Shown here one piece after another: positions 4,153 through 51,117 of a DNA stretch of 64,000 nt. The stretch comes from Escherichia phage ph0021. The DNA is taken from sequence record OP557970.1; one strand, given 5' to 3'. Position 1 is the stretch's first letter, and the number at the start of each line of letters is the position of its first letter. The position numbers were made by a program, and so were the translations under genes. Below the pieces are notes generated by a model that ran no database searches, was not told where the DNA came from, and worked only from the letters and a program-made list of their open reading frames with translations.

Positions 4153-4156
4153 CAAT

Positions 4157-4501: not shown

Positions 4502-4532
4502 TACTATAACACAACACGAGGGACTTGTAAAC
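4502..4532 (-). promoter_or_regulatory. T4-type early promoter
   Basis: Minus-strand GTTTAC -35 (4527..4532) and TATAGT-like -10; part of a repeat shared with the alc promoter. Confidence 0.6.
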
Positions 4533-6589: not shown

Positions 6590-6592
6590 GAT

Positions 6593-8686
6593 TTATCCTT
6601 GAACGAACTTGTAAGGCATGTTTGTAATATCTATGCAAGACGCAATAATTCCAAGAGATGATTCTACTTTCTGTTTAATATTTGATGAAACAAATGATGC
6701 AAAGTCAACTCTGTCTTCTATTTCAATATCACCTGTCATTGCAACCAATTCACCAGTTTCCATTAAATGGTCTCCATCATAGATTACCGATTCGGTGAGC
6801 TCTTCCGTGGTCATAACTTCAGCTTGAATGAGTTTTGTATTATTAGATGTTGTTCCGTCATTATTAGAAGCATCGGTTATTTTATTAACTTTGACCATCA
6901 ATCCACGCGGTAGAATAACTTCAGCTTCTGTTGCTATTCCGAGACTTCCTGGATATACAACATTAACTTTATGAGCTCCATCAATTGCCCATCCTATTTG
7001 AACTTTAACATATTCAGGATTTTCTTTATACGCTCTTATTTCGTTTGGATTAATAGTTATTCCTTCTTCATTTTTATCAACTGTTAATTCATTGCGAGCT
7101 TCTGGTTCTAAAAGACCAATACCAGCATGTGTGATTCCAAAACGTCCAAAAATGATAGGAGTTAAAGAAGTAGATACAAAATTTCTGAAGTAGAACACTT
7201 TATTTTTAACTAACGCTTCATATATAGGAGCAGTCATACTTTGAGCACGATAAACTGTAATGCCTTCTGGTATACGGTCACCATTTTCAAAAGCTGAATC
7301 TAAGTTATTTATAGCAGATTCAATTTCTTTTTCACTCATTACATCGTATCGTTCTGGATTGTAACGACCTAAAAGAAGATTATTGATGTCAGTATATCCT
7401 GAACCGCAATATTCTCTAATGCCACGCTTTTGTGATGGAGTATATTTAGAACCATCGCGGGCAATAGTAATATCAATCATTGGACCAGCACCAATTCCAG
7501 AAAAACTGTAAATCATTCGTTTGAGGAATTTAGTTTTTGCTGCGTTCCAGGAATTTTTAGTTATTTCTTCCCAGACTTCATCTGGTTGTCCTTTACGATT
7601 TTTATTATGATTAGCAAGCCATTTATCTTTATAATCTTCAAAGAATTGATTTACAGCTGCTGCGTATTTCTCTAAACATTTTATTGAAGTAGTTGGTTCA
7701 TTTTTAATTGCATTAAAAATTACTTCTTTAATTTTTTCTGAAACTTCACCGACTTGACTCATTGGAAAGAATTTATAATCATAGTGAAGTTCATCTGCCG
7801 TTCCTTCAGCAATAATTTTTGCTGCCTTTGTTTTAGAAGCTAATGAATTAATTCCAATTTTCATTTCTTCTGCTTCGGGAATTAAAGGTGCAGTAGCTGG
7901 TTTATTAAAATTGGCTGCTGTAGATTCATACTTCTGGAATAATTCACTTTCAAATCTAGAAGATTCCAATGACTGACTTTGTGCAATTGCTCTACGGGAA
8001 ATTTTAACTTTAACGATTACAGCTTGGTCAGAACGTTTATCATTTTCTTGTGCAATAGATGCTGCAATTGCTTCATTTTTAGTTACTTGAGCTCCAGTAT
8101 CTTTATTGATATAAACATCACCGACCTTCGATTCAACTTTAGTAAAGAGTTCAGTGCTAATTTCTGGAACTCCTGGAATGTCTTCTAATGATACATTTTT
8201 GCGATGTATAAGAATATATGCATACTTTTTATCGTAATCCCAGAGTTCCTTAAGAAGGACGTATCTGCCACCTGAACGACTACGGATAAGTCTATCAGCA
8301 ATAACTTGAATTTGTCGAGCTTGGCCAGCAGTTTTAGACTTAAGAATACGAAGCATGCAGGCATCAATTTTATATTGACGCATCGTTTGCATTGCAACAG
8401 TAAAAACTGAATTGATATAATTAATTGGGCTTGGACCAAGACCTTTTAATTTAGCAATTGAGCCTTTAGCAGTTAATGTAAAAGGAACAATATGCATCAT
8501 TTTATCGCCCATCTTTAAATCGCGATTAGTATCACCTCCAGATGTATAGGTACATAAACGAAAGCCTGGTTGTTCAATTGCATCATCAACATGAACTGAA
8601 AAAATTTGTGGTATTTTCTTCTTTGGATTTAAGTTTGTAATCGGAAGAGTAGTATCTTCGTCAAATAATTCTGTAATAAGTTCCAT
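6593..8686 (-). CDS. alt: Alt ADP-ribosyltransferase (head-packaged, modifies host RNA polymerase)
   Basis: 697 aa starting MELITELFDEDTTLPITNL; ART R-S-E motifs; located between 54 and 30 as T4 alt. Confidence 0.85.
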   Translation of the reverse strand: MELITELFDEDTTLPITNLNPKKKIPQIFSVHVDDAIEQPGFRLCTYTSGGDTNRDLKMGDKMMHIVPFTLTAKGSIAKLKGLGPSPINYINSVFTVAMQTMRQYKIDACMLRILKSKTAGQARQIQVIADRLIRSRSGGRYVLLKELWDYDKKYAYILIHRKNVSLEDIPGVPEISTELFTKVESKVGDVYINKDTGAQVTKNEAIAASIAQENDKRSDQAVIVKVKISRRAIAQSQSLESSRFESELFQKYESTAANFNKPATAPLIPEAEEMKIGINSLASKTKAAKIIAEGTADELHYDYKFFPMSQVGEVSEKIKEVIFNAIKNEPTTSIKCLEKYAAAVNQFFEDYKDKWLANHNKNRKGQPDEVWEEITKNSWNAAKTKFLKRMIYSFSGIGAGPMIDITIARDGSKYTPSQKRGIREYCGSGYTDINNLLLGRYNPERYDVMSEKEIESAINNLDSAFENGDRIPEGITVYRAQSMTAPIYEALVKNKVFYFRNFVSTSLTPIIFGRFGITHAGIGLLEPEARNELTVDKNEEGITINPNEIRAYKENPEYVKVQIGWAIDGAHKVNVVYPGSLGIATEAEVILPRGLMVKVNKITDASNNDGTTSNNTKLIQAEVMTTEELTESVIYDGDHLMETGELVAMTGDIEIEDRVDFASFVSSNIKQKVESSLGIIASCIDITNMPYKFVQG

Positions 8687-12625: not shown

Positions 12626-12666
12626 AGTATTTTCCTCAGTAAGGGGCCGAAGCCCCTCATTTTATT

Positions 12667-16214: not shown

Positions 16215-16447
16215 AGTACGCCATACACCCTTTGTGCTTCAACTAATCCATCAAAATCCAATTTAAGATGCGATATTTGATCGCCATCACCTGGATTCAC
16301 AATTACTAATACTGAACGAGGAGTTTCGGTAATAACACGAACCGATGTTTCAGGAAATCGTTCAGAAACCTTATTTACTAATTCCTGCGCAAATAGTTTA
16401 ACTTTTTCTTGAAATTCTTTAACAGTAATTGGTTTTTCACTTAGCAT
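16211..16447 (-). CDS. hypothetical protein (cd.x)
   Basis: 78 aa ORF. Confidence 0.35.
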   Translation of the reverse strand: MLSEKPITVKEFQEKVKLFAQELVNKVSERFPETSVRVITETPRSVLVIVNPGDGDQISHLKLDFDGLVEAQRVYGVL

Positions 16448-16983
16448 GTTGATCCCAGCTCCTTACTTTCAACGTTTTTAACTAATTTGACAGAAACTAA
16501 TTCAGCATCTTGGGTAATCATTACTGGACCTTCTTCATACTCTTCAAGATATTCTAGAGCTTTCTTTTTAGCTTCTTCCTTCGTATCAGTTTGAGCATAG
16601 ATATAAAACATACAACCAGTAATACCTACTACTTTCCATTTAATTTCTTTATCAGTTTTAATTTCAAATTTACTGACAGAATCATCTTTTTGAACTTCTT
16701 CGAAAAAATAATATTCTGACATATAAGTAATTGAAAACAACGGGCTATCTTTATAGCATTCGCCCATTACATCAACAGCTTTATACCAGTAATCGTCAAT
16801 TTCGCGTTTAATGCTAATAACATTCTTCGCAGGATCAATTTTTACTTTAAATGAATTTTCATCAATAAACTGGGCAATTCGTTTATTAGCCCCACAGGTT
16901 TCATTAAAAATATCTTTATATCCAGCTTTAAAGCGATAAACCTTATCTTCTTCAAACCATTCGCTCATTTTCAATTTCCTCAT
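16441..16983 (-). CDS. hypothetical protein (cd.x)
   Basis: 180 aa ORF with its own early promoter. Confidence 0.4.
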   Translation of the reverse strand: MRKLKMSEWFEEDKVYRFKAGYKDIFNETCGANKRIAQFIDENSFKVKIDPAKNVISIKREIDDYWYKAVDVMGECYKDSPLFSITYMSEYYFFEEVQKDDSVSKFEIKTDKEIKWKVVGITGCMFYIYAQTDTKEEAKKKALEYLEEYEEGPVMITQDAELVSVKLVKNVESKELGSTC

Positions 16984-23848: not shown

Positions 23849-26112
23849 TACAATTTACACGCTGCACAATCGTCGGCTTTAGGAGTTTCTATTTCATAAT
23901 CATCAGTACCAGAACCATCACGGGTATTATGATAATAGAAATTTTTAATGCCATAATACCATCCGTATAGCATGTCATCAATCATTATTGACATTGGAAC
24001 CTTTCCTTTTGGAAAAATCTGCGGGTCATAATATGTATTCGCTGAAGCTGATTGACATACCCATTTCAGCATAATAGCTACCTGCGTAAGATAAGGTTTA
24101 TTACCTTTCTTAGCTAATTTCCATGTATAATCATAGAGGTCTATGTTATGCTCAATATTGGGCACGACTTGATTAAAGGAACCCTCTTTTGATTCTTTAA
24201 CAGAGACTGGTCCACGTGGAGGCTCGATACCGTTTGTACTGTTAGAAACTTGGGAAGATGACTCACATGGCATAAGTGCTGATAATGTGCTATTACGGAT
24301 GCCAAAGAGCTTAAGGTCTTCCCGCAGCGCCGACCAGTCACAAACGTATTTTGGAGCTGCGATTTGGTCAATCTTTTTATTGTACCAGTCGATAGGTAAT
24401 TCGCCTCGAGACCAACGAGTGTCTGAATAATATTCGCAAGGTCCTTTTTCTTTGGCGAGCTTAATGGATGCTTTAATGAGTCCATACTGTAATCTCTCAA
24501 ATAGTTCATGTGTTAAATCGTTAGCATCTTCATAAGAAGCAAAGTTACTTGCCAGCCAAGCTGCATAGTTAGTAACACCTACACCGAGGTTACGACGCTT
24601 TTTAGCTTTTTCTGCTTCAGGAACTGGATATCCTTGGTAATCCAAAAGATTATCAAGAGCACGAACTTGGACTTCTGCCAATTCATTAATTTTATCTTGG
24701 TCTTGCCAGTCAAAATTATCCAGTACGAATGCAGAGAGAGTACACAATCCAATTTCAGCATCAGGACTATTCACATCATTTGTTGGAATAGCAATTTCAC
24801 AACACAAGTTACTCTGACGAATAGGTGCCTTTTCACGAATAAACGGAGTATAATTATTCGTATTATCGATGAACTGCACATAAATCCTTGCTGTTCCTGA
24901 GCGTTCAGTCATGAGCAATTCAAATAGTTCACGGGCTTTAATGCGCTTTTTACGAATATTAGGGTCTTTTTCTGCTGCTTCGTATAATTCGCGGAAACGG
25001 TCTTGGTCTTTAAAATAAGAATAATAAAGCTCGCCACCCATTTCATGCGGACTGAACAAAGTAATGTAGTCGTTCTTTCCAAAACGTTCCATCATCAAAT
25101 CATTCAGCTGGACGCCATAATCCATATGACGGATACGGTTTTCTTCTACACCTTTGTTATTTTTCAAAACGAGAAGATTTTCAACTTCCAAATGCCAAAT
25201 AGGATAATAAGCAGTAGCAGCGCCGCCACGAATTCCACCCTGTGAGCATGATTTAACAGCAGTCTGAAAATGTTTCCAAAAAGGAATAACACCAGTATGG
25301 CGTACTTCACCCATGCCAATCTTGGAACCTTCGGCACGAATCATACCAACGTTAATACCAATTCCAGCACGTTTGGAGATATATTCAACAATTGAAGCGG
25401 AAGCCTTATTGATAGACTTTAATGAATCACCTGCCTCAATAACAACACATGAACTAAACTGTCGAGTCGGAGTACGACAACCAGCCATAATAGGAGTTGG
25501 TAATGAAATCTGTCGAGTAGATACTGCTTCATAAAAATGAATAACATGTTTTAATCTATCAACAGGTTCATCTTGATGCAATGCCATTCCAATAGTCATA
25601 AATGCAAACTGTGGAGTTTCATAAATTTGACCAGTGGTTTTATCTTTAACTAGATATTTTTCTTTTAATTGCATCGCCCCGGAATAAGTAAATTCCATAT
25701 CCCGCTCATGCTTAATTTTTGATTCTAAAAATGTAATTTCTTCTGCTGAATATTTTGACAATAATTCAGGGTCATATTTACCTTCATTTACACAGTAAGA
25801 AATATGGTCAATAAATGAACATGGTTCATACTGTCCGTACACATGTTTACGAAGAGCGAACATTAGACAACGTGCAGCTACATATTGATAATCAGGCTCT
25901 TCAACCGAAATAGAATTCGCAGCGGCCTTAATGACAATAGTCTGAATATCATCAGTTGTCATTCCATCACGGAGATAAGATTTAATATTTTCATATAATT
26001 CATAAGGATCGACTGATGTTCCTTCAGCTGCCCAAGATAAAACTTTAATAATTTTTTGTGGGTCAAAGCTCTGAGAAACACCACTACTTTTGATAACATT
26101 AATTAATTGCAT
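23848..26112 (-). CDS. nrdA: ribonucleotide reductase large subunit
   Basis: 754 aa, same as T4 NrdA; class I RNR motifs. Confidence 0.95.
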   Translation of the reverse strand: MQLINVIKSSGVSQSFDPQKIIKVLSWAAEGTSVDPYELYENIKSYLRDGMTTDDIQTIVIKAAANSISVEEPDYQYVAARCLMFALRKHVYGQYEPCSFIDHISYCVNEGKYDPELLSKYSAEEITFLESKIKHERDMEFTYSGAMQLKEKYLVKDKTTGQIYETPQFAFMTIGMALHQDEPVDRLKHVIHFYEAVSTRQISLPTPIMAGCRTPTRQFSSCVVIEAGDSLKSINKASASIVEYISKRAGIGINVGMIRAEGSKIGMGEVRHTGVIPFWKHFQTAVKSCSQGGIRGGAATAYYPIWHLEVENLLVLKNNKGVEENRIRHMDYGVQLNDLMMERFGKNDYITLFSPHEMGGELYYSYFKDQDRFRELYEAAEKDPNIRKKRIKARELFELLMTERSGTARIYVQFIDNTNNYTPFIREKAPIRQSNLCCEIAIPTNDVNSPDAEIGLCTLSAFVLDNFDWQDQDKINELAEVQVRALDNLLDYQGYPVPEAEKAKKRRNLGVGVTNYAAWLASNFASYEDANDLTHELFERLQYGLIKASIKLAKEKGPCEYYSDTRWSRGELPIDWYNKKIDQIAAPKYVCDWSALREDLKLFGIRNSTLSALMPCESSSQVSNSTNGIEPPRGPVSVKESKEGSFNQVVPNIEHNIDLYDYTWKLAKKGNKPYLTQVAIMLKWVCQSASANTYYDPQIFPKGKVPMSIMIDDMLYGWYYGIKNFYYHNTRDGSGTDDYEIETPKADDCAACKL

Positions 26113-26429
26113 AAGTCCTCAACTTGAAAATCGTCTTTAAACAATCGGTTAACTATATGAGCTATTATATCACCATGACACGGCTTTGGTTTACATGTGC
26201 ATCCTAGCCTCATTCCACGTAAAGGCTCTAAATGTGCTTTAGTTATTTCTCCGGATTTAATTCGACGTATAAAATCTTTTTTGAATAATTCAATGGCAGC
26301 CTCCCGGCTGCCAGCATCTTTACCGACGTAATTTCCCCAAAATGTACCACGGTGAATATTAACATCAAAGTCGGATTTATATTTATTCACTACTCGGCAT
26401 ATACGGCCTGCGCGGTTGTAGGTGTTCAT
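26103..26429 (-). CDS. hypothetical Cys/His-motif protein (nrdA.1 position)
   Basis: 108 aa; C-terminal [13 protein letters not shown] motif. Confidence 0.4.
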
Positions 26430-26646
26430 ATTGTTCTTCCGTTAAAACAGTAATATCGTAGTAACAGTCAGAAGAAGTTTTAACTGTGGAAATTTTATTA
26501 TCAAAATACTCACGGGTCATTTTATGAGTATAATATTTTTTGCCATAAATGATAATAGGCTGATTTGGTCCTGGAACTTCTAACTCGCTTGGGTTAGGAA
26601 GTGTAAAAAGAACTACACCAGAAGTATCTTTAAATCGTAAAATCAT
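26383..26646 (-). CDS. hypothetical protein (nrdA.2 position)
   Basis: 87 aa ORF. Confidence 0.35.
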
Positions 26647-26669
26647 AAATCCTCACAATTAAATTAAAA

Positions 26670-26984
26670 TTACACCGCCATTTTTCCTTTCAAGACGCCG
26701 TGGGACTGATAATCTTTGAGAACGAAATCTTTAGGCCTGAGTTTAAGAATGTATTCCAATTGTTCTTTAGTAGAAAGATAGCGGAATTTATAAGGCAATC
26801 CGCCTATTATCAGTTCACAAAGCTCTTTAGGTTCACGACGCAAAATTTCTTTACATTGTTCTACGTGATTCATATAGATATGAGTATTACCGCCAGAAAA
26901 TATCAAATCTCCAGGAATAAGATTACACATCTTAGCTACAATATGAACTAACGCAGCATATGATGCAATATTAAATGGAAGCAT
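26670..26984 (-). pseudogene. td: thymidylate synthase exon 2 only (td remnant)
   Basis: Translation LPFNIASYAALVHIVAKMCNLIPGDLIFSGGNTHIYMNH is the TS C-terminal third; the apparent start ATG lies in intron-derived sequence; no exon 1 found in the window. Confidence 0.75.
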
Positions 26985-27128
26985 TATGTTCAGATAAGGT
27001 CGTTAATCTTACCCCGGAATTATATCCAGCTGCATGTCACCATGCAGATCAGACTATATCTCCAACTTGTTAAAGCAAGTTGTCTATCGTTTCGAGTCAC
27101 TTGACCCTACTCCCCAAAGGGATAGTCG
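26985..27128 (-). mobile_element. 3' portion of td group I intron (remnant)
   Basis: Non-coding, structured GC-rich segment between the td exon 2 splice junction and an ORF ending in the I-TevI C-terminus. Confidence 0.55.
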
Positions 27129-27380
27129 TTAGGCATTTATGTAGAACCAATTCCATTTATCAGATTTTACACGATAAGTAACTAATCCAGACGAAATTTT
27201 AAAATGTCTAGCTGCATCTGCTGCACAATCAAAAATAACCCCATCACATTCATCTTCCCATCCCATATCACGTAAAAGATGTTCAGCTTTTTCAACGAGT
27301 TCAGAATCTTTACCAATGATATTAAAATACCATTTACCTCTAACTTCTGAATCTTTGATGCTCTGACGTTGTAATCTCAT
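27129..27380 (-). CDS. chimeric ORF carrying the I-TevI C-terminal HTH DNA-binding domain
   Basis: 83 aa; last ~39 aa CDGVIFDCAADAARHFKISSGLVTYRVKSDKWNWFYINA match the I-TevI C-terminus; N-terminal 44 aa unrelated; own early promoter and AAGGAG RBS. Confidence 0.6.
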   Translation of the reverse strand: MRLQRQSIKDSEVRGKWYFNIIGKDSELVEKAEHLLRDMGWEDECDGVIFDCAADAARHFKISSGLVTYRVKSDKWNWFYINA

Positions 27381-27399
27381 TTTATTCTCCTTAGTTGAT

Positions 27400-27435
27400 A
27401 GGGTAATAGTATCACACTACTACCCTTCCGTAAAC
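27400..27435 (-). promoter_or_regulatory. T4-type early promoter
   Basis: GTTTAC (27430..27435) and GATACTAT -10 on minus strand. Confidence 0.55.
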
Positions 27436-27800
27436 TACTTTTTGAAAGTTTTTCGCAAAAGTTCAATGATTTCATCTACATTGTTTTCGTCTACAATGCA
27501 GTGAATTTTTGTTACGCCAGAAATCTTGTCTTCGACTTCATCTTCTTCAAAAGTCGATTCTTTATACTCACGAAAACAATGAAATTCATCTTCACAGACG
27601 TTGAAGTAAAAATGCTTTCCATTTGCGCATTTAATGTGTTTTATTACTCTAAATCCATCAGCAGAGAAAGCTTCTTTAACTTCAAACCATCCGCCATTAT
27701 CTCGAATAATTTTAACTATTGATGAATTAGAACGTGGGCGATAATTAATAAATGTATCAATAAGTCTTGGAACAAGCTCATACTTTTTGCCAATATACAT
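27435..27800 (-). CDS. hypothetical protein (frd.2-like position)
   Basis: 121 aa ORF. Confidence 0.4.
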   Translation of the reverse strand: MYIGKKYELVPRLIDTFINYRPRSNSSIVKIIRDNGGWFEVKEAFSADGFRVIKHIKCANGKHFYFNVCEDEFHCFREYKESTFEEDEVEDKISGVTKIHCIVDENNVDEIIELLRKTFKK

Positions 27801-27844
27801 TACGTTTTCCTCATTTTAATAGGGGCTTTATAGCCCCTTAATAA

Positions 27845-28096
27845 TTATTGTTCAATCAGTCCCATGTAAAATTCTGCGTCTTCAGAATCCATGCCATCAC
27901 AATATTCATTAGCCATAAAGCGGGTGAGGTCTTCAAGAGGACCTTCAATGACAATAGAAAAATTGCAATAATTGGGATCATCATGAATACTTGTGATACT
28001 AAGTTCAGGATAACGATTACGAATAATTTCTTCAATATATTCAAAATCAACGATGTCAATATCAACTTTAGCCATATTATTTTCCTCTTTAATCAT
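27845..28096 (-). CDS. hypothetical acidic protein (frd.3-like position)
   Basis: 83 aa ORF with its own early promoter. Confidence 0.4.
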
Positions 28097-28114
28097 CAGC
28101 AGTATTGCCGATAG

Positions 28115-28148
28115 TTGTATAGTACCATAAAGCTTTATGCTTGTAAAC
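28115..28148 (-). promoter_or_regulatory. T4-type early promoter with A/T-rich UP element
   Basis: GTTTACA (28143..28148), TATACA-like -10, upstream ttttgtgaaaaaattttgaaataaaaaa; near-repeat of 45390..45450. Confidence 0.55.
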
Positions 28149-28164
28149 CGTTTTGTGAAAAAAT

Positions 28165-28197
28165 TTTGAAATAAAAAAGGGGACCTCTAGGGTCCCC
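28165..28197 (-). terminator. rho-independent terminator after gene 32
   Basis: Hairpin ggggacctctagggtcccc followed by U-run on the minus-strand transcript. Confidence 0.65.
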
Positions 28198-28219
28198 AAT
28201 TAATTAGTAATATAATCTA

Positions 28220-29128
28220 TTAAAGGTCATTCAAAAGGTCATCCAGGTCCGTGTCATCAGCACTAGATGAACTGCCAGAGCTTGAGCTCATAAAATCATC
28301 TTCAGTTTTTGTTTTGAAGTCATCAACATTGAATGCATCCAAATCATCAGCAACTTTATCAGCTTTCTTAGCGGCAGTTGCTGCGGCACCACCCATAGCA
28401 GCAGTTCCCATAACTTGACTGAACTTAGTGCTCAGTTCTTCAAACGATTTGAATTTATCTTTAGAAGTCATTTCAGAAAGGTCAACCATTTGTTCGAACA
28501 GTTCTTTCTGGAAAGATTCATCATCAATGTTTGGAATCGCAGATTGATTCAGGAATTTAGATTCGTCGTAGTTACTAAAACCAGAAACTTGTTTAACTTT
28601 CAGTACAAAGTTAGCACCTTCCCACGGACAAGTTACATCAACCGGAGTTTCACCCATTTCAACATCAACTGCAATCATTGCATTGATTTTATCCCAGATT
28701 TTCTTACCGAAACGGTATTTAAATACTTTGCCTTCATTTTCTGGAGCAGCTGGGTCTTTTACTACAAGAATGTTAGCCCAGTAAGAAGTTTTACGTTTAA
28801 CAAGACCGTACTCTTTATTGTCAGTATTATACAAATCATTTTTACTGATGTACTGACATACTGGACAAGAATCGTAATCACCGTAGGTAGATGAGCATGT
28901 TTCGATATACCATTTACCATTTTTCTTGAAACCGTGATTTACAAGAAGTGCAAATGGTGCTTGTTCATCATTTTTAGACGGAAGAAAACGAATTACTGCT
29001 TGACCGTTACCCGCATTATCGAGTTTCAGTTTCCACTCGCCTTTATCTTCAGAAGAAAAACCACCTTTATTTCCAGCCAGTTTAGCCATTTGTGCAGCGA
29101 GTTCAGCAGTAGATTTACGTTTAAACAT
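28220..29128 (-). CDS. 32: single-stranded DNA-binding protein gp32
   Basis: 302 aa; [18 protein letters not shown]-terminus and acidic C-terminal tail [22 protein letters not shown] as in T4 gp32. Confidence 0.95.
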
Positions 29129-29190
29129 TTTTATTTCCTTTTTAATTTAATTAACAGTTGGTGCTATGACACTTTACCTCATAGCTGGCA
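29129..29190 (-). promoter_or_regulatory. gene 32 autoregulatory translational operator (AU-rich leader plus pseudoknot)
   Basis: Leader reads uuaauuaaauuaaaaaggaaauaaaaAUG, preceded by pseudoknot-forming gccagcuaugagguaaagugucauagcacc. Confidence 0.6.
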
Positions 29191-29811
29191 TAATTCACAA
29201 TACTCTGGGTCTTCGAGAGGTATCCAACCTGAGTTGAAATACTTTACCATCGATTTAGCAGTTGTATCAGTTATATTTATATTACCCTTAACTCTTCGCC
29301 ATCCAGGAGTTTTACCGTACAGATTAGAGGATAATAATAACACATAATTCTCGTAAGCAATATGAGATAATTTCCAAGACTCTATATTAGCTCGTGATGT
29401 TTTCCAAGGTCTAAAATCGTCACGGTTCATATAATTAGCCAATCTCATATGCTCTCTAACTTCCGGGTCTTTGGCTGGATGAGTTTCACCACTCACACCA
29501 AATCCGCCGCCAGCATATACCAGATTAAAATAGTCTGGATTATCTCTGGCATTTACTTCAAGTTGGTATTTTCGCTCTGCTTCAATAACATCCAAATCAT
29601 CATCAATTTGAATTATTTTAACGCTCGGTTTTTGAAGCATTACCGCATTTAAAAATCTTTTTTGTTTACATGAGCTCCAGTATTCCTTTCCGGAAGAGTC
29701 ATATATTATTCCATTCTCAAATGAGCAATTTAATTTACTACCGATATAGTAGTACGGCGGAGTCTTATTTTTGACACGGTCTTCAAATGTAAACCAATAT
29801 ACTATATTCAT
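29179..29811 (-). CDS. GIY-YIG homing endonuclease (SegG-like)
   Basis: 210 aa; N-terminal IVYWFTF...YYIGSK resembles a GIY-YIG motif; located between 32 and 59 where T4 has segG. Confidence 0.55.
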   Translation of the reverse strand: MNIVYWFTFEDRVKNKTPPYYYIGSKLNCSFENGIIYDSSGKEYWSSCKQKRFLNAVMLQKPSVKIIQIDDDLDVIEAERKYQLEVNARDNPDYFNLVYAGGGFGVSGETHPAKDPEVREHMRLANYMNRDDFRPWKTSRANIESWKLSHIAYENYVLLLSSNLYGKTPGWRRVKGNINITDTTAKSMVKYFNSGWIPLEDPEYCELCQL

Positions 29812-29812
29812 A

Positions 29813-30466
29813 TTAATACTTACAGGATTTCACAGTTTCAATGAAAACACTTTTGGCTTTCTGTGAATCAATATTTAAAATTTTTCTATAAGCTTTTAAC
29901 TTTATAGAATAATTATTCCAGACTAAATTATCAGTCTGTTCATCATGTTTATCAATTATATTTAAAAACGAATCAAGCAAGATAAACGTCTCAAACGAAA
30001 TTATATTCGATTGAAGTAGTTTAAAAATATAACTTGATTGAACTTTTGGATTATACTCAAAGATTTCTTTAAAAGCAGAAACTTCAACTTTTTTACTAAA
30101 ATAATAAATGTTGCGAATATCTTCTTCAAACTTAAATTTAATTTGCTTTAAGCGTCCGATATATTCACGATAAAACACAAGTGCATCAGCGTCAGAGATG
30201 TCACCAATCCAAGCATCTTGGTTAGCAACCAGATTGCTTATAAAGATTAAAGCAAGTTCCTTTAATTTATATTTTTCTGATAACTTCTGGAAAAAATACT
30301 TATCCCTTCGCTTTTGATAAGCGGCATCAGACACCCGCATGCACCAATTATACTTAATTACATCATACTTTCCATTCATATGTTGTTTTATCATTAAGTA
30401 TAATTTATAAACTGATTTACCATCAATATATCTTTCACCACCAGCAGGCATGCGGAGTTTAATCAT
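29813..30466 (-). CDS. 59: gp59 helicase loader
   Basis: 217 aa, T4 gp59 length and position. Confidence 0.85.
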   Translation of the reverse strand: MIKLRMPAGGERYIDGKSVYKLYLMIKQHMNGKYDVIKYNWCMRVSDAAYQKRRDKYFFQKLSEKYKLKELALIFISNLVANQDAWIGDISDADALVFYREYIGRLKQIKFKFEEDIRNIYYFSKKVEVSAFKEIFEYNPKVQSSYIFKLLQSNIISFETFILLDSFLNIIDKHDEQTDNLVWNNYSIKLKAYRKILNIDSQKAKSVFIETVKSCKY

Positions 30467-43297: not shown

Positions 43298-43577
43298 ATT
43301 GAATCACCTTCAGTTGACGTTTTAATTCTTTTATCATCTCTTCGTTCATCGCAATATAAAGATCGCGTAAAGCAGGTTTTAACATTCCATTTACTGGAGA
43401 ACTAAATGGACATACATAATCTTTTCCTACGAGCTTTTTGGTGAATTCCATATCACAGAACTGAAATGCCGGTTCATTGGCATAAATTCCCCAATTAGTT
43501 GACATCATTTTATTGGCATATTCCAACGCCTGGATTTGATTCTTAATTCCATCAATTTGAAACTTTTTAATATTCAT
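43281..43577 (-). CDS. hypothetical protein
   Basis: 98 aa ORF. Confidence 0.35.
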   Translation of the reverse strand: MNIKKFQIDGIKNQIQALEYANKMMSTNWGIYANEPAFQFCDMEFTKKLVGKDYVCPFSSPVNGMLKPALRDLYIAMNEEMIKELKRQLKVIQFGQGN

Positions 43578-44038
43578 TAGTAAAGGTCCTCAGAGTAAAG
43601 TTCTTTTTCACTACCACCGTGTTCAATACGTACTTGTCCGGCGTAAGTTGCAATAATCATTGCTTCTTCACGTGTCCAGTAATTGCTATACTGATCAATA
43701 AACCCTTGGTCATCATCACAAACTTGCTGAGTAACTAATTGGGGTTTAACTACATCTAAAACTTCTGCCATATCTTTAGAATAATGACGAGCACCTGGAA
43801 TAACAAGAGTTCGTCCATCTTTTAATTTAAAACGGTTGGCGGCACAAACAATTCGTCGTTGATACTTTTGGTTTTCATCCCAGTATGCGGTCTGCCAACA
43901 GATTTCAGGAACTTCTTTCAGAATATCTTCTTCTGTGCATTTATAACCATGTGCTTTAAATTTTTCAACAAGACTTTCTGGAGTTTCACGAGATAAAGGA
44001 ACATTCAGCATTTTTAAACGATTAATAAATGGGTTCAT
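43577..44038 (-). CDS. hypothetical protein
   Basis: 153 aa ORF; no motif recognised. Confidence 0.4.
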
Positions 44039-44364
44039 TTAAACCATCCTTTAATACGCTGCCACAGAGTTTTCTGTTGAGCTTTGTTAACACCAATTGA
44101 GCGAATAACTGGTTGAGATTCCTGGAATTCTTTATAATCAGCAAGGTAAATTTCGTAAGCCGATTGAACAAAGGTACTAATCGCTGCCATGAAGTTCTTG
44201 CGAATTCCCATAGAGGCTTCAGAACCACCACGGATGATTAAATATTTACCAGTCTTAATCTTTACGATAGTTCCAAGATAAGCTCCATGGTACCAGATGT
44301 CCCACCCCTCTTGAGTGGGTTCTGCACAACGACGAAGTTCATTAACAATTTCTAACTTGTTCAT
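44035..44364 (-). CDS. hypothetical protein (motA.1 position)
   Basis: 109 aa ORF. Confidence 0.4.
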
Positions 44365-44374
44365 TATTTATTCC

Positions 44375-45010
44375 TCACAGTTCAGATGCTACGGTGATTA
44401 CCGCTTCAATGTTTTCTGCCGAGCGTTTAATGTCAAGATACACATTACCGTTTTTAGCGATTTTACATGACATTCCGATATCAATAAATTTCTGAATATG
44501 ATGTTCCATCATTTTGTATCCAAAAATTCGCATATTTCCATTATTGTTAATTTCAAAATTACGAATTCCGTGAGTGCGTTTTTCTAAAATAGCGAGATAG
44601 TTACTACGATAAGTTTCAACCTTTTTAAGAACAAATCCATTTTCATCTAAAAGTTTTAGCATAAGGTCTTTATCTTCTTCCATATCGGAAGTAATCTCAC
44701 GAGCTTTACGAGTTGCTCGTTTTTTCAGTAGTTCAGGAGCATTTTCCTGTGCATATAAAGTTGCTGCATTTGAAATAATATCCTGAGCTTCTCCTGTAAT
44801 GATTAATCCATCACCAGATTTCTCTACCAGACCTTTTTTAATCAATACCCCAATATTACTATTAACTACTGCATTACCTAAATCTGGATGCACCTCACGA
44901 ACTTCTGCGGCTGTAATGAAATCTTTCTTAGCAATGGTAATTAAAATCGCAGCAGTTTTTTCATTCAGAACATCGTTAGAAGCTTTGATGATGTAAGTTA
45001 CTTTAGACAT
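44375..45010 (-). CDS. motA: MotA middle-transcription activator
   Basis: 211 aa starting MSKVTYIIKASNDVLNEKTAAILITIAKKDFITAAEV. Confidence 0.9.
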   Translation of the reverse strand: MSKVTYIIKASNDVLNEKTAAILITIAKKDFITAAEVREVHPDLGNAVVNSNIGVLIKKGLVEKSGDGLIITGEAQDIISNAATLYAQENAPELLKKRATRKAREITSDMEEDKDLMLKLLDENGFVLKKVETYRSNYLAILEKRTHGIRNFEINNNGNMRIFGYKMMEHHIQKFIDIGMSCKIAKNGNVYLDIKRSAENIEAVITVASEL

Positions 45011-45045
45011 TTTAATCTCCGTTTCAGTTCATTTATTTGATAGGT

Positions 45046-45076
45046 CTATAGTATCATGTTTAAAGCAGAAGTAAAC
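45046..45076 (-). promoter_or_regulatory. T4-type early promoter for motA
   Basis: GTTTAC (45071..45076) and GATACTATAG -10 region on minus strand. Confidence 0.55.
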
Positions 45077-45115
45077 ACTTTTTTGCACTCTTTTTCAAGA
45101 GCTCTAATAAAGTAC

Positions 45116-45343
45116 TTACTTAATGTTCAGATTACGAACTTCGATTTCGTCTTCATGGGCAAAATCAAACTGTTTGAATTCTGTGTCACCTTTAAATTTA
45201 AAAATCATTGTGAAGAAAGTCAGAACACCAGGTTTTTCTTCACGAACTCCACAGATATCATATTCAATACCATCTACAACCAGTTTGTTAGCAGTCAGAG
45301 CATTTTTAGCTTTAACGATTTCGTTTTCGATTTTAAATTTCAT
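45116..45343 (-). CDS. hypothetical protein
   Basis: 75 aa ORF with its own early promoter. Confidence 0.4.
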   Translation of the reverse strand: MKFKIENEIVKAKNALTANKLVVDGIEYDICGVREEKPGVLTFFTMIFKFKGDTEFKQFDFAHEDEIEVRNLNIK

Positions 45344-45389
45344 TTTTTGTATCTCCGGGTTGTTTGTTTCAGTTCATTTATTTGATAGT

Positions 45390-45422
45390 TGTATAGTACC
45401 ACAGTATGCTTTGGTTGTAAAC
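45390..45422 (-). promoter_or_regulatory. T4-type early promoter with UP element
   Basis: GTTTACA (45417..45422), TATACA-like -10, upstream ttttgtgaaaaaatttttgaaataaaaaa. Confidence 0.55.
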
Positions 45423-45439
45423 CGTTTTGTGAAAAAATT

Positions 45440-45472
45440 TTTGAAATAAAAAAGGGAGAGCCTCGGCTCTCC
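45440..45472 (-). terminator. rho-independent terminator
   Basis: Hairpin gggagagcctcggctctccc followed by U-run on the minus transcript. Confidence 0.6.
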
Positions 45473-45477
45473 CTAAA

Positions 45478-45627
45478 ATTACTGCATGACTGTGATAACT
45501 GTCATGATAACACGTTGAATTCCGAACGCAAGAAGACCTCCTGCTACGGCAGGAACAACACCTAAACCCGCCAGTAAAATGCCACCAGATACTAATGCAG
45601 CGCTTGTAATACCTATGAATGGACTCA
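45478..45627 (-). CDS. small hydrophobic membrane peptide (~49 aa), translationally coupled to gene 52
   Basis: MSPFIGITSAALVSGGILLAGLGVVPAVAGGLLAFGIQRVIMTVITVMQ; ATG overlaps the gene 52 stop (ATGA); below the ORF-track size cut-off. Confidence 0.45.
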
Positions 45628-46953
45628 TTTGATTTCCTCTAAATCTTTGGTGTATTCTGTAACTACATCAGTAGTTTTCCAATATTCGTTTTCTTCTTTT
45701 TTAGCTTTAGCTTCTTCAGCAAGTTTCTTTGCTTCGTCGGAAGTCATATGAAAAATATTCATTCCGACTAGTTTATCAACATAAGAAGAATACATCTCAA
45801 TTTTAGAAAGTTCTTCAGTCAGTTCTTTGCGAGTTTTACCCTGTACAACGATTTCACCTGAAATTACTTTCTTAATGAAATGTGCCTTGGCAAAAGCTAA
45901 ACGAAAAGCTGACTCAGTTTCTTTAATTTTATTATCAATTCGTTTTTGGACATAAGTTTTACGAACTTCAACGAAGTCTTTGATTAAATCAACTACGTTA
46001 TCGTAAACTTGTAGTTTTCCTTTCTCATTAATAACCGTAATATTCTGAGAACGACGCTCAATCAACCCGAAGTCTTTCATAATTTTTGCATGGCGTTCTT
46101 CTTCATTATCGCTCAAAGAGTATTCTTTTCGGAATTTAACTTTGAATCCAAAACCATGCTCACCACAAGCATCATCCCATGTAATGAAGCCTTTATCTTC
46201 AAGTGGGTCTAAGATTTTACTCACATAAATTTCACGATCATACTTATACGGAATCTCAGTGATATGCATTTGAGTTCGTGAAGTAAACTTATATGTTCCA
46301 CGAATTTCATATTGCCCATCAATTTCAACGACTTCACCACGAAATTCTGGGAATTCTACCTTCGGTTTAGTTACTTTCTTTCCTTGAAGAGCTTGTAATA
46401 CAGCTTTCTTGACAGAAGAAACACTATGAGGAAGAATGTAAGTTGCATAACCAGTTGCAATACCGGAAACGCCATTAAGAAGAACAGTAGGAATAATAGG
46501 CAAATAGAAAGCAGGCGGAATGTGTTCTTTATCTTGATGTACCGGAGCATATTCAGTATCTTTATATACGTTATAGAAATTTTTACTTACACGAGCAAAA
46601 ATATAACGACTTGCTGCTGCCTTTTGGACAGTACGAGAACCAAAGTTTCCTTGACCGTCTAACAGAGGAAAGTTATTATTCCAAGTGTTAGCCATCAAAG
46701 CACCTGCGTCTTGCGCAGAGTTTTCACCATGATGATATCCAAGGTCCGCTACACCGCCTGCGATAGAAGCGAGTTTGTGAAACTTATCTTTATTTCCTCG
46801 TGCCAAATCAAGAGCTCGAGCAATAACAAATCGTTGAACTGGCTTAAATCCGTCAATCATATTTGGAATGGCACGATTTTCAACCGTGTACATAGCATAA
46901 GCCAATGCTTCATTATCAATGATACTTTTTAAATCGCGATTATTCAGTTGCAT
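45625..46953 (-). CDS. 52: topoisomerase II medium subunit gp52
   Basis: 442 aa; GyrA/ParC-like N-terminus MQLNNRDLKSIIDNEALAYAMYTVENRAIP. Confidence 0.95.
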   Translation of the reverse strand: MQLNNRDLKSIIDNEALAYAMYTVENRAIPNMIDGFKPVQRFVIARALDLARGNKDKFHKLASIAGGVADLGYHHGENSAQDAGALMANTWNNNFPLLDGQGNFGSRTVQKAAASRYIFARVSKNFYNVYKDTEYAPVHQDKEHIPPAFYLPIIPTVLLNGVSGIATGYATYILPHSVSSVKKAVLQALQGKKVTKPKVEFPEFRGEVVEIDGQYEIRGTYKFTSRTQMHITEIPYKYDREIYVSKILDPLEDKGFITWDDACGEHGFGFKVKFRKEYSLSDNEEERHAKIMKDFGLIERRSQNITVINEKGKLQVYDNVVDLIKDFVEVRKTYVQKRIDNKIKETESAFRLAFAKAHFIKKVISGEIVVQGKTRKELTEELSKIEMYSSYVDKLVGMNIFHMTSDEAKKLAEEAKAKKEENEYWKTTDVVTEYTKDLEEIK

Positions 46954-46957
46954 AAAT

Positions 46958-47098
46958 TTACCATACTAGTGAATGTAGTGCCATAATAACATCAGAAATG
47001 AAAAGCACGACTTGAATTAATCCGAACATTACTCCATAATATAGTGCTACCAATAAAGTAGCAAGGGCTAATGAATAGCCCAAGATTTTCTTAATCAT
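46958..47098 (-). CDS. small hydrophobic peptide (~46 aa)
   Basis: MIKKILGYSLALATLLVALYYGVMFGLIQVVLFISDVIMALHSLVW; hand-translated. Confidence 0.35.
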   Translation of the reverse strand: MIKKILGYSLALATLLVALYYGVMFGLIQVVLFISDVIMALHSLVW

Positions 47099-47249
47099 TA
47101 GTAGATAACAACACAAATGTTAAATATGCACACATACCCTGGGCTAAAGCTTGTGAAAACACACTGCTAGCATCGATACAGATAGTTAAAACACATGCTA
47201 CTATCCAACAAATAAATGAAATAACTCCTAATAATTTTGCGATATTCAT
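47091..47249 (-). CDS. small membrane protein (~52 aa), Ac-like by size and position
   Basis: MNIAKLLGVISFICWIVACVLTICIDASSVFSQALAQGMCAYLTFVLLSTND; preceded by UUCG hairpin and RBS. Confidence 0.35.
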   Translation of the reverse strand: MNIAKLLGVISFICWIVACVLTICIDASSVFSQALAQGMCAYLTFVLLSTND

Positions 47250-47336
47250 ATTTTCCTCACTGGCGTCCGAAGACGCCTTTAGTTTTAAGATTATTACGAT
47301 AGAACTGCATCACATGTTCGTTATGGAAATTACTCA

Positions 47337-47795
47337 TTAATATGCCTGCAAAACGAATTTAAAATTATCAGCCAACATACGGTTCATTTCTTCAAGTGTT
47401 TGATACTCAGAATGATGATTACGAGTAAACGCTAAAGCTAACTGTCCTTTTCCAAATCCCGTCGTCAGAGGTTTCATCTTAGAAGCAGGCAGATAAAATA
47501 CTGCGTATGGAACATTGTTATTTGCAATAGTACGTGCAAGCTGAGACCGACGTTGACGAATATGACTTAGAACTGCACTGAATCCTTGCTTAGAACGCTG
47601 ATTACCTACATAAAATCGTGCAGACACGCATGGATTACTAAATGGACGACCATCTAATTTACTCACTAAAAAGTAAAATCCAGGTTTAGATAAAAAGTCT
47701 TTATGCGGAGTTCCCAAAAACCATTCACCGTTCTTGATTGTACCAATAACGGTAGCGCCAGCATTATTCAGATCAGTAGCAGTCATATATTTCAT
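47337..47795 (-). CDS. ndd: Ndd nucleoid disruption protein
   Basis: From internal Met [29 protein letters not shown]4 Ndd-like, ~152 aa. Confidence 0.85.
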
Positions 47796-47855
47796 ATTAA
47801 TTTCCTCTAAATTATTTTCTACTCCAAGGCCGCATGAATACACGCGGCCATTAAA

Positions 47856-48071
47856 TTAATCGTCGCAGTCGACGCTCAATTCCCAAAACTCTTCTACGGT
47901 ATAAGTTTCAGTATCATTTTCAATACAGAAACGTTCATTACTATTATTTGCTAAAGTAGCGTTAACTGTCATTTTCTCGCTGGTGCTCTTAAGAGGTGAA
48001 ATACGAATTAACTGATCACCACTATCCAAGCAAAAAATTTCACCAACTTTTACATCTTTAAAGATTTTCAT
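47856..48071 (-). CDS. hypothetical protein (ndd.x)
   Basis: 71 aa ORF. Confidence 0.35.
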   Translation of the reverse strand: MKIFKDVKVGEIFCLDSGDQLIRISPLKSTSEKMTVNATLANNSNERFCIENDTETYTVEEFWELSVDCDD

Positions 48072-48186
48072 AATTCACCTCAAGGAGTATAAAATCCAAA
48101 TGCAGTTGTTGACCATCCCATCCAATATGGAAAATTTGCGCCAATGTAAAACATAAGAATATAAAACCAACCACTCAGCAAATTCA

Positions 48187-48384
48187 TCATTTTACACCAT
48201 TCCAAATTGTTTCAACCACGGATTTTAAACCATTTTGATGAATATCCATTCCGACTACCGTCATCAAATAAATTCCAACTACAACTGAACCTAAGGCAAA
48301 AATCAGCATGAAAATGAATAAAGCCGGAAAAATATTATCGAAAAACCATTCAATAAATGTAAAAGCACTGCGTTTACGCTTCAT
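48187..48384 (-). CDS. small membrane protein (ndd.x)
   Basis: Hydrophobic core FPALFIFMLIFALGSVVVGIYLMTVV; likely start MKRKRS after a GAGGA RBS. Confidence 0.4.
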   Translation of the reverse strand: MKRKRSAFTFIEWFFDNIFPALFIFMLIFALGSVVVGIYLMTVVGMDIHQNGLKSVVETIWNGVK

Positions 48385-48391
48385 ATTTTCC

Positions 48392-48505
48392 TCACATAAA
48401 TCCAAAGTAAACGTTTAATACATCAATCATTAAAACGATTGGGAATATACTCAAAACTATTAGTATTATAACTACATTCCATATAGCTTTAACAATCTTT
48501 TTCAT
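48392..48505 (-). CDS. small membrane peptide (~37 aa)
   Basis: MKKIVKAIWNVVIILIVLSIFPIVLMIDVLNVYFGFM directly downstream of a promoter and GGAGG RBS. Confidence 0.4.
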   Translation of the reverse strand: MKKIVKAIWNVVIILIVLSIFPIVLMIDVLNVYFGFM

Positions 48506-48530
48506 TTTCTGTTCCTCCGTAGTTGATAGG

Positions 48531-48564
48531 GTAATAGTACCACGGAAGAACAGTCTTGTAAACA
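48531..48564 (-). promoter_or_regulatory. T4-type early promoter
   Basis: GTTTAC (48559..48564) and TACTAT -10 on minus strand. Confidence 0.55.
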
Positions 48565-48748
48565 ACTTTTTTAAAAATATTCGTAATAAATGTGAATACC
48601 AATCACTACTGCCGAAACTTGTGCAACCCACCATGCACACGCAATAAGTACAGAATTCAAAATTTTCATAATAACCTCATCACAAAAGTAAATGTTAAAC
48701 AAATTACTGGAATACTAATTAACCAAACAAAACACCAACATAATGAAC

Positions 48749-49012
48749 TCATAGTTCAATCTCAACGATTTCCAAGTGTTTTTGTTTTATTGCCTTTTTA
48801 ACACAATCATGGACTAAATATGACCATGAATCATTATATTCTCCATTAACTAATCGTTGGAGATCTTCACGTGATGATAAGTAAGGTTGATCTGATTCCC
48901 ATTTTGATAAAAATACTGCAGTAAAAATATCTCCTTCATCTGTAGTTGAAGTCGTAAATGCAATAAATTCACCGGTAATTTTATGTTTAGCGTAATAAAA
49001 TTTAAATTTCAT
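48749..49012 (-). CDS. hypothetical protein (~87 aa from MKFKFYYAK)
   Basis: Promoter and GGAGG RBS lie inside the longer ORF-track reading, so the internal start is preferred. Confidence 0.4.
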   Translation of the reverse strand: MKFKFYYAKHKITGEFIAFTTSTTDEGDIFTAVFLSKWESDQPYLSSREDLQRLVNGEYNDSWSYLVHDCVKKAIKQKHLEIVEIEL

Positions 49013-49038
49013 TTTTACTCCTCCGTAGCTGATAGTTG

Positions 49039-49069
49039 TATAGTACCACGGTCCTTGTGGTATGTAAAC
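49039..49069 (-). promoter_or_regulatory. T4-type early promoter
   Basis: GTTTACA (49064..49069) and TACTATACA -10 region on minus strand. Confidence 0.55.
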
Positions 49070-49086
49070 TGTTTTGTGAAAATTTT

Positions 49087-49644
49087 TTAAATGGAAAGAT
49101 ACCATCCATTGTAGTTGCTTTTTCTTACAACCTTACGAAGGTCTTCTCTGTCACCGATGAACTTCGGAGTGTACTGGATGACACCTGGATGAATTTCTTT
49201 AGTGTTGAATATAATTATACAGTCAGCGACTTGATGATTTAGAATGGGCCCTAGATTTATTCCAGAACCGTATGGATACTCTCCGCTGCATCCTGTTGTT
49301 ACAGAAATCCAACGTGAGCCAGTTTGATGTGTCTTAACTTCTACACGAAGCCCACAGTATTTTGGATGTGCTAAAACATCCCACGCGTATGTATATGGAT
49401 CATCGACATCTTCTTGACCTTTATTAACATACCCGCTTAGCCAATCTGCTACAAAAAACTCTGCGTATACAGCAATACGACATCTTTCAATAACTTCTGC
49501 TTTATCCTGGTTCGGGTTTTGTTTTAAAGAGTATCTTGCAGTATCAGCAATTTTGACCTTCATTTCACTAGTCAAGTCACTGTTCGATAGGGTAAATGTC
49601 GGAATCTGAAATAGTCTCTGTAAACCCGGATTCGTTTTCTGCAT
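49087..49644 (-). CDS. denB: DenB-like endonuclease IV
   Basis: 185 aa (T4 DenB size) located between ndd and rIIB. Confidence 0.55.
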   Translation of the reverse strand: MQKTNPGLQRLFQIPTFTLSNSDLTSEMKVKIADTARYSLKQNPNQDKAEVIERCRIAVYAEFFVADWLSGYVNKGQEDVDDPYTYAWDVLAHPKYCGLRVEVKTHQTGSRWISVTTGCSGEYPYGSGINLGPILNHQVADCIIIFNTKEIHPGVIQYTPKFIGDREDLRKVVRKSNYNGWYLSI

Positions 49645-49906
49645 TTAGACTTTCCTTTTTACCACTGAGATAAGCGTTATATACTTTAAGAGTGCCGTAA
49701 TAAATTCGGTCATTTTCATCTAAAGACTCGCGGTCAAGTTCATCAAGCTCCTTTTTATCCATGACTATAACATCATTACAGTAAAGAAACCCAAGTTTTT
49801 CGTGACCAAACTCAAATTTATTACAGTACACAATATTAGCGTGATGATTTCCGTGCAGTTTAATCTCTTTTATGTCGGAATCACCGATATTCATACAATA
49901 AATCAT
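49577..49906 (-). CDS. hypothetical protein
   Basis: 109 aa ORF, partly overlapping denB in another frame. Confidence 0.3.
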   Translation of the reverse strand: MIYCMNIGDSDIKEIKLHGNHHANIVYCNKFEFGHEKLGFLYCNDVIVMDKKELDELDRESLDENDRIYYGTLKVYNAYLSGKKESLNAENESGFTETISDSDIYPIEQ

Positions 49907-49944
49907 AATTTTTCCTTAAAACAAAAGGGCCGAAGCCCTTTATT

Positions 49945-50139: not shown

Positions 50140-50167
50140 AATTTTCCTTAGTTAAGGGCCGAAGCCC

Positions 50168-51106: not shown

Positions 51107-51117
51107 AATTTTCCTTA

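Follow-up and report, generated by a model that had tools for sequence, protein, structure and literature searches.

The early promoters (Pe) of bacteriophage T4 are reportedly treated in Liebig and Ruger 1989, Wilkens and Ruger, and Miller et al. 2003. They have been described as 'uber' UP/-35/TGn/-10 promoters with additional conserved positions (Hinton, 2010, PMC2988021). Promoter-early stem-loop (PeSL) cassettes are known from T4-like phages (Arbiol, 2010, PMC2839356; Comeau, 2014, PMC4122927), and a mechanism for their shuffling has been published for RB49/phi1 and for PST/T4, including a worked example at ndd.4/.5 (PMC2839356, PMC4122927). Mini-circles between such repeats have been shown experimentally in RB49/phi1 (PMC2839356). 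The stem-loops of RB49/phi1 that overlap the -10 box have been interpreted as terminators or attenuators. Repeated early-promoter elements have also been reported at the internal-protein (IP) loci of T-even phages (Repoila et al., 1994, to the extent that it is cited in PMC2839356), and analogies have been drawn with the morons of lambdoid phages and with integron gene cassettes (PMC2839356). The promoters considered here are textbook T4 early promoters, and their possible role as recombination linkers was already published in 2010 and 2014. The locus provides one more clean example, a 75-aa ORF between two promoter copies, that can help annotation and serve as a test locus.

The window, a stretch of 64,000 nucleotides from Escherichia phage ph0021 (OP557970.1), is by its sequence that of a T4-like phage, a Tequatrovirus. 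Window positions 26000-30000 and 43500-51500 show 100% identity with GenBank OR584013 ('Pseudomonas phage PsgM02F') and ~96% with hundreds of T4-like coliphages. Given this second identity, the host entry of OR584013 (Pseudomonas coronafaciens, coffee leaves) looks doubtful. Positions 1-8360 of the window map past the end of the linear OR584013 record, and the window is thus a different permutation. The gene order is that of T4, from gene 32 and the frd genes (Table 1) to motA, 52, ndd, denB, rIIB and rIIA farther along, all on the minus strand. Since the repeats and the surrounding genes are on the minus strand, the repeat segments must be read as the reverse complement. No known RNA families or tRNAs were found in the window.

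It had been noticed in the original prediction that a segment of ~70 bp upstream of a frd.3-like ORF recurs elsewhere in this DNA. The recurrence is real, with positions off by 3-9 nt. A direct-repeat search placed the members of this family (D1) at 28110-28183, 45384-45457 (81% ungapped), 49031-49104 (70%), 48525-48598 and 56639-56712; the starts given earlier were 28107, 45383 and 49023. Below, promoter copies are designated by the position of the G of GTTTAC on the minus strand. Read on this strand, every repeat has A/T-rich DNA (the UP region), then GTTTAC(A) and, across a gap of 18 nt whose last three are TGG, TACTAT; a conserved transcript start (ACAACTATC or TACCCTATC) and a Shine-Dalgarno sequence come after it. 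In the five copies cited originally TGG or TGA precedes TACTAT. The copies run with the early genes and stand directly 5' of a Shine-Dalgarno sequence and a start codon. A position weight matrix (PWM) was built, and the window and the complete T4 genome were scanned with it. On the minus strand 34 sites were found in T4 and 18 in the window. The only plus-strand matches, two in T4 and a single one in the window, arise where a palindromic site is also read in mirror image; the early-gene strand holds 34 of the 36 T4 matches and 18 of the 19 window matches. The family in the window comprises ~19 copies, all on the minus strand. A 126-nt probe over the frd.3 unit matched 537 phage records at 2714 places, which is ~5 per genome.

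Table 1. Positions in the window of the promoters, terminators, genes and promoter-associated features discussed in the text.
Feature	Position	Strand	Details
Gene 32	28220-29128	minus	then frd.3, frd.2, frd.1
Intrinsic terminator of gene 32	28179-28197	minus	GGGGACC-CTAGA-GGTCCCC, then TTTTTTATTT; dG -13.1
Early promoter of frd.3 (28148)	28107-28178	minus	UP region 28149-28178; -35 GTTTAC 28143-28148; TGG 28125-27; -10 TACTAT 28119-28124; predicted start near 28112; PWM 62.7
frd.3 ORF, 76 aa	27845-28075	minus	predicted to be driven by the 28148 promoter
Early promoter of frd.1 (27435)	27392-27470	minus	-35 27430-27435; -10 27406-27411; PWM 53.6
Intrinsic terminator after motA.1 / gene 52	45453-45474	minus	AGGGAGAGCC-GAGG-CTCTCCCT, then TTTTTATTTC; dG -19.3
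Early promoter before 75-aa ORF (45422)	45384-45452	minus	-35 45417-45422; -10 45393-45398; PWM 65.2
75-aa accessory ORF, phrog_10955	45116-45343	minus	PHROGs 'unknown function'; T4 without counterpart
Second early promoter, adjoining motA (45076)	45023-45113	minus	-35 45071-45076; -10 45048-45053; 17-nt gap
Early promoter after denB (49069)	49023-49100	minus	-35 49064-49069; -10 49040-49045; PWM 64.7
87-aa accessory ORF, phrog_2390	48749-49012	minus	predicted to be driven by the 49069 promoter
Early promoter of ndd.4 (48563)	48509-48598	minus	-35 48558-48563; -10 48534-48539; PWM 64.5
Promoters within a -10 hairpin	63577, 58376, 57267, 56677, 48563, 27435, 20320, 17028, 13489, 13097, 4532	minus	
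Indels relative to T4 that abut a promoter	4551, 16975, 27394, 45056-45379, 49022		

In promoter orientation, the 28148 copy reads GGGGACC-CTAGA-GGTCCCC TTTTTTATTTCAAAATTTTTTCACAAAACG GTTTAC AAGCATAAAGCTTTATGG TACTAT ACAACTATC... The 45422 copy has the same layout behind another hairpin (GGGAGAGCC-GAGG-CTCTCCC), and the 49069 copy, which is without a hairpin, has the segment from TTTTCACAAAAC to ACAACTATC in common with 28148. In the 27435 and 48563 copies TACCCTATCAACTA takes the place of ACAACTATC. The A/T-rich UP element of the cited copies, AAAATTTTTTCACAAAAC, lies upstream of the -35 box at about -40 to -60. By our own count it agrees with the Estrem UP consensus at 10-11 of the 13 positions that this consensus specifies. 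The copies at 27435 and 48563 had been set apart as a second family on the strength of a string that begins at 27392 and 48520 (27395 and 48511 in the original prediction). This string is the -10 and transcript-start part of the frd.1 and ndd.4 promoters, which differ only in having the TACCCTATC variant and score as ordinary members of the family; a separate second family was therefore rejected.

The five cited sites are orthologs, 97-100% identical, of the T4 early promoters at 146875 (frd.3), 163673 (motA), 167086 (ndd.6), 166807 (ndd.4) and 146143 (frd.1). The element of the frd.3 promoter is ~97-99% identical to that of T4 and corresponds to the Pe at 146875, the 45422 promoter to the motA promoter at 163673, and the 49069 promoter, whose UP region overlaps the end of denB, to the Pe at 167086. 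The orthologous frd.3 and frd.1 sites are annotated in OL960580 as 'similar to phage T4 early promoter GTTTAC(N14)gtggTAttaT (Miller et al. 2003)', and one family member, Pe133295, is named in the T4 RefSeq record. The sequence layout and the T4 orthology thus bear out that the cited elements are promoters with UP elements. The ORF behind the first copy was likewise correctly named: it matches Pfam PF05798 (Phage_FRD3) with E = 6e-38, and frd.3 was found in 731 phage records. For the cassette ORFs other than frd.3 and an ORF with DUF7418, Pfam and PHROGs give only 'unknown function'. On this sequence evidence, the repeats are almost certainly early promoters with terminators.

The GC-rich hairpins had been described as following each promoter. 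As the elements are read on the minus strand, the hairpin precedes the promoter in the direction of transcription, and it accompanies the copies at 28148 and 45422 only; a terminator scan found no terminator hairpin at 49069, 48563 or 27435. Scanning and folding identify these hairpins as rho-independent terminators of gene 32 and motA.1, not as elements that follow promoters, and the gene 32 hairpin is annotated as a rho-independent terminator in OL960580. The T-run of each terminator passes directly into the UP element of the promoter behind it (gene 32 to frd.3, motA.1 to the 45422 promoter). Such a terminator-promoter fusion is seen in only three of the ~19 window promoters (28148, 45422 and 13489).

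The mode of action of these elements has been established for T4; for the window phage we infer it from sequence and orthology. Immediately after infection the early promoters would be bound very strongly by the E. coli sigma-70 RNA polymerase in its unmodified form, through a combination of recognition elements, namely the UP element (alpha C-terminal domains), the -35 box GTTTACA, the extended -10 TGG and the -10 box TA(C/T)TAT. Transcription would start ~7 nt past the -10 box, with a leader of ACAACTATC or TACCCTATC, then AACTAC, then GGAG, and each promoter would serve one or a few small early genes. At gene 32 and motA.1 the terminator T-run, by passing into the UP element, would create a terminator-promoter unit of ~90 bp that insulates adjacent expression units. 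T4 recombination requires only short homology, and the many copies in the same orientation, with near identity over 50-75 bp, could serve as crossover points. Because near-identical copies in one orientation are so many and the homology requirement so short, small accessory ORFs may be inserted, deleted or exchanged together with their promoters. Crossover at the promoter copies corresponds to the published PeSL model and is the part of the explanation that we infer. Taken as a whole, the repeats are very probably T4-type early promoters and terminators that also have a role in recombination.

The 18 minus-strand members in the window share a mean pairwise identity of 47% (sd 8%) over 72 nt. 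The top pair, 28148/45422, reaches 78% ungapped (z = 3.8 against the family), and the other pairs over 72 nt reach 74% (28148/49069), 72% (45422/49069) and 69% (27435/48563). The orthologous frd.3/motA pair of T4 stands at 85%, with z = 4.1 among 561 pairs. The cited copies are thus more alike than generic early promoters, where the original prediction had held out the possibility that their similarity might be no greater than that between unrelated T4 early promoters. 'Almost verbatim' recurrence at 45383 was an overstatement. The gapped identity of 28148/45422 is 63/74 (85%); it holds at 59/61 without the 13-nt spacer core, and the core matches at 4/13, which is background (the family mean is 29%). 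By part, 26/30 positions match in the UP region, 6/6 in the -35 box, 9/9 in TGG and the -10 box, and 9/12 in the first transcribed bases. With a spacer core of this kind, a recent duplication of the whole 70-nt block is not supported for this pair. The copies are mosaics in which spacers, UP types and leader types occur in varying combinations.

In a comparison with T4 and five other phages, the gain, loss or replacement of small ORFs was seen immediately at the promoters' 3' edge. That the copies sit where small ORFs come and go agrees both with what had been suspected from the sequence and with the PeSL idea (PMC2839356, PMC4122927). In T4 a single promoter stands before motA. In the window the same slot contains the T4-type promoter, a new leader, the 75-aa ORF, a weak hairpin (GAGCTCTTGAAAAAGAGTGC) upstream of the second promoter at 45076, and then motA. 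The two promoters around the 75-aa ORF include a 36-nt direct repeat (45021-45056 / 45366-45401, 92%). This ORF is present in 167 records only, and its homologues in Gelderlandvirus, Jiaodavirus and Karamvirus lie at other loci, with early promoters on both sides. In Dhakavirus IME08 two unrelated ORFs occupy the motA-52 slot, both preceded by nearly the same promoter and leader; the 45076 element is homologous to the promoter type in that slot, and no homology was found between the 75-aa ORF and the same-slot ORF of IME08. Depending on the phage, the motA-52 slot carries 0, 1 or 2 cassettes. In IME08 an unannotated ~73-aa ORF (MKTLNINSFFYNAN...) with its own early promoter was observed at 3410-3630 (minus strand), between orf245 and motA. 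Recombination between the two repeats beside the 75-aa ORF would leave a simple deletion product, for which a search of 50,697 phage records gave no full-length single-piece match.

Similar changes are seen at the other cited copies. In the denB slot the 87-aa ORF follows the 49069 promoter, and T4 retains only its last ~8 codons; behind the frd.1 promoter (27435-type) T4 is longer by 84 bp, in which lies a 20-codon ORF. At both 49069 and 27435 the homology to T4 breaks directly after CTATCAA. At 146018-146103 of T4 this unannotated 20-codon ORF (MFAPYIMAAVMLVCLYLLIKAC) separates frd.1 from its promoter, with nearly duplicate leader/Shine-Dalgarno sequences on both sides; it is absent at window 27394/27395. 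The interval from the denB-side promoter to the ndd.4 promoter measures 279, 506, 513 or 729 bp among six phages. Relative to T4, 5 of 18 indels of at least 8 bp end in or at a promoter and its leader, in a small sample and with footprints of <3% of the window (Table 1). A rough count against a gene-junction null, also on a small sample, placed 5 of 11 junction events at promoter-bearing junctions, with ~1.8 expected. Over the 8 kb from motA to rIIB in five phages, 3 of 7 distinct indels abut a promoter (a small sample; footprints 3-5% of the sequence). The null used for this enrichment accounts only partly for the intergenic bias of indels, and the enrichment is weaker against an intergenic-only null. 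However an indel arose, the edges of any conserved element are where homology would be seen to break off.

Several other differences from T4 were observed in the window. At the junction at ~27241-27249, 2,050 bp are missing compared with T4 (143814-145865) and the closest relatives. The dihydrofolate reductase gene frd is lost, as are the 3' end of frd.1, the first exon of td and a portion of the td intron with I-TevI; of td only a 315-nt fragment is still annotated. A promoter-mediated origin of this deletion, the largest one nearby, was rejected, as the junction has ~8 nt of microhomology inside frd.1 and I-TevI and no promoter. A full-length second alt copy (4532-6589, minus strand; 685 aa), an RNA polymerase ADP-ribosyltransferase paralog, occupies a site at which T4 has only the remnants alt.-1 and alt.-2. 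This 1.7-kb difference begins 19 nt upstream of the -35 box of the 4532 promoter; over 54 nt, this promoter and its leader share 93% identity with the promoter of alc (20320). An ORF of 175-180 aa at 16441-16983 (minus strand; phrog_3710, unknown function in PHROGs), which T4 is without, is inserted exactly between the Shine-Dalgarno/start of a Pe133295-type promoter (17028) and cd.2. The DUF7418 ORF (49577-49906, minus strand; 109 aa) lies between denB.1 and denB and is absent in T4, ECP52 and RB51. It is located near members of a second repeat family, the GGGCCGAAGCCC terminator-like hairpins at 49924-49941, 50153-50170 and 12629-12666. They are reminiscent of the GGGC/GCCC motifs found where T4 deletions end (Mosig, 1998, as far as it is quoted in PMC2839356). 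The nrdB intron with I-TevIII is absent from the window phage (22441-22444), and so is the gene 60 / 60.1 / mobA insertion that splits the topoisomerase gene of T4 (53912-53964).

Different explanations of the repeats can be weighed against these observations. With 65% A+T in the genome and A/T-rich intergenic regions, some likeness between intergenic segments might arise by chance. Shuffle controls argue against this: TTCACAAAACRGTTTACA gave 3 matches where 0.05 were expected, GGTACTATWMMMCTATC with up to two mismatches 7 against 0.09, and GTTTAC-N18-TANNAT 13 against 0.34, the last with all 13 on the minus strand. Random 90-mers are 27% identical (sd 5%), against 62-78% for the cited pairs. 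Chance similarity was rejected on these grounds, and its probability is close to nil. Nor is it at all probable that the repeats are a promoter-carrying mobile element, autonomous or non-autonomous (MITE-like or homing-type). Such an element would suit the ~5 blast-detectable copies per genome in >500 phage genomes and the sharp repeat borders of some pairs, but all copies have one orientation, stand exactly before a Shine-Dalgarno sequence and a start codon, and occupy orthologous positions in different phages; terminal inverted repeats, target-site duplications and an associated transposase or endonuclease were not found. The cassettes had been called 'mobile or recombinogenic'. The second term agrees with the PeSL model; mobility, the first, is putative.

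A closer rival is selection alone, by which each copy has on its own been kept at, or brought to, one optimal promoter sequence, without any causal role in shuffling. The nearby indels would on this account reflect the clustering of accessory genes in early regions, where promoters also lie. Selection for promoter function does explain much of the similarity, since the likeness is confined to the RNA polymerase contacts and the first ~10 transcribed bases, and conserved blocks at these contact regions are common to the whole family in several genera. It could also keep 28148 and 45422 similar without recent exchange, because their similarity is confined to functional elements and the spacer core stays at background. 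The absence from the databases of the predicted recombinant junction is in its favor as well. Against it stand two cases in T4. Between Pe55384 and Pe146875 identity extends over ~75 nt, spacer included (18/18), with sharp borders and with unrelated terminator stems and leaders, and a recent duplication of the whole block is supported for this pair. Pe27080 has the spacer of Pe166807 with another UP region and leader; at Pe166807 this spacer pairs with the Shine-Dalgarno sequence, whereas Pe27080 is without the matching leader and looks like a relic of recombination. The occurrence of one promoter module next to unrelated ORFs in Tequatrovirus and Dhakavirus also counts against selection alone, as do the mini-circles found experimentally between such repeats in RB49/phi1 (PMC2839356). 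We regard selection alone as rather unlikely for the likeness of the copies, and the clustering of accessory genes as an equally unlikely sole source of the indels. Recombination at the copies, rather than selection alone, is the somewhat more probable explanation for the identity within subfamilies and for the nearby indels.

For each window promoter the 60 nt from just past GTTTAC toward the start codon were folded. A hairpin enclosing the -10 box with z <= -2.4 was found in 11 of the 19 (Table 1). One example is 58376 (dG -30.6, z = -9.8). At the ndd.4 promoter (48563) the hairpin occupies 48509-48553 (dG -22.7, z = -5.7), and the promoter spacer pairs with the GGAGG Shine-Dalgarno sequence; at the frd.1 promoter (27435) it lies at 27397-27429 (dG -16.2, z = -3.15). 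Folding gave no significant hairpin at 49069 (z = -0.7), and among the cited copies the -10 hairpin is present in 27435 and 48563 and absent in 28148, 45422 and 49069. In T4, 14 of 34 early promoters (~40%) lie in such a hairpin, compared with 6% of 400 random windows (Fisher p = 8e-8). In these hairpins the promoter spacer forms the 5' arm, the -10 box lies in the loop and the leader forms the 3' arm. In T4 that 3' arm contains the Shine-Dalgarno sequence in 8 of the 14 significant cases, or roughly one early promoter in four. Two compensatory changes from C-G to T-A distinguish the T4 paralogs Pe20612 and Pe57990.

The 5' arm lies ahead of the start site, so that this hairpin could form in read-through RNA and in no other transcript. 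It is possible, if on balance doubtful, that RNA from the promoter itself, without the 5' arm, is translatable, and that read-through RNA folds the hairpin and is translationally silent or attenuated. If true, each cassette would be an insulated unit restricted to the immediate-early period, and the differences in spacer between otherwise near-identical promoter copies would be explained. A hairpin device is known in the late-promoter genes e, soc, 49 and I-TevI of T4 (PMC3014915). No description of the hairpin as a general property of T-even early promoters was found in two reviews of 2010. The pairing of the spacer with the downstream ribosome-binding site around the -10 box is the only part of this analysis possibly worth further work, and it is a lead, not a result.

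The cassettes can be compared with several known systems. Like morons and integron cassettes, an accessory gene with its own promoter and terminator forms a plug-in expression unit. Morons, however, are not thought to move via their regulatory sequences, and integrons use a dedicated integrase and attC sites, whereas no recombinase is implicated for the window cassettes. The IP loci, as far as the quoted account of them goes, resemble the present case in that T4 early-promoter-based repeats flank highly variable small genes in T-even phages; they are different loci, outside the window. The early-promoter hairpin would act in the same way as the device of e, soc, 49 and I-TevI, which are late-promoter genes. 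With T4 Pe, the window promoters share the consensus GTTTAC-N14-gtggTAttaT, an A/T-rich UP region, and the strand and positions before frd.3, frd.1, motA, ndd.6 and ndd.4 at 97-100% identity. No essential difference is seen; here the motA-type promoter is predicted to drive the extra 75-aa ORF, and a second promoter of the Dhakavirus type to drive motA. PeSL cassettes show the same succession of stem-loop, A/T-rich region, early promoter, Shine-Dalgarno sequence and start codon beside variable small ORFs, and the PST/T4 consensus TTTACW-N17-TAYWAT fits the window copies. In PST/T4 the stem-loops are directly upstream of the promoter, which is true here of some copies only. A promoter is joined to a stem-loop in four of the five cited copies, as an upstream terminator at 28148 and 45422 and spanning the -10 box at 27435 and 48563, and many window copies have the stem-loop across the -10 box, as in the RB49/phi1 class.
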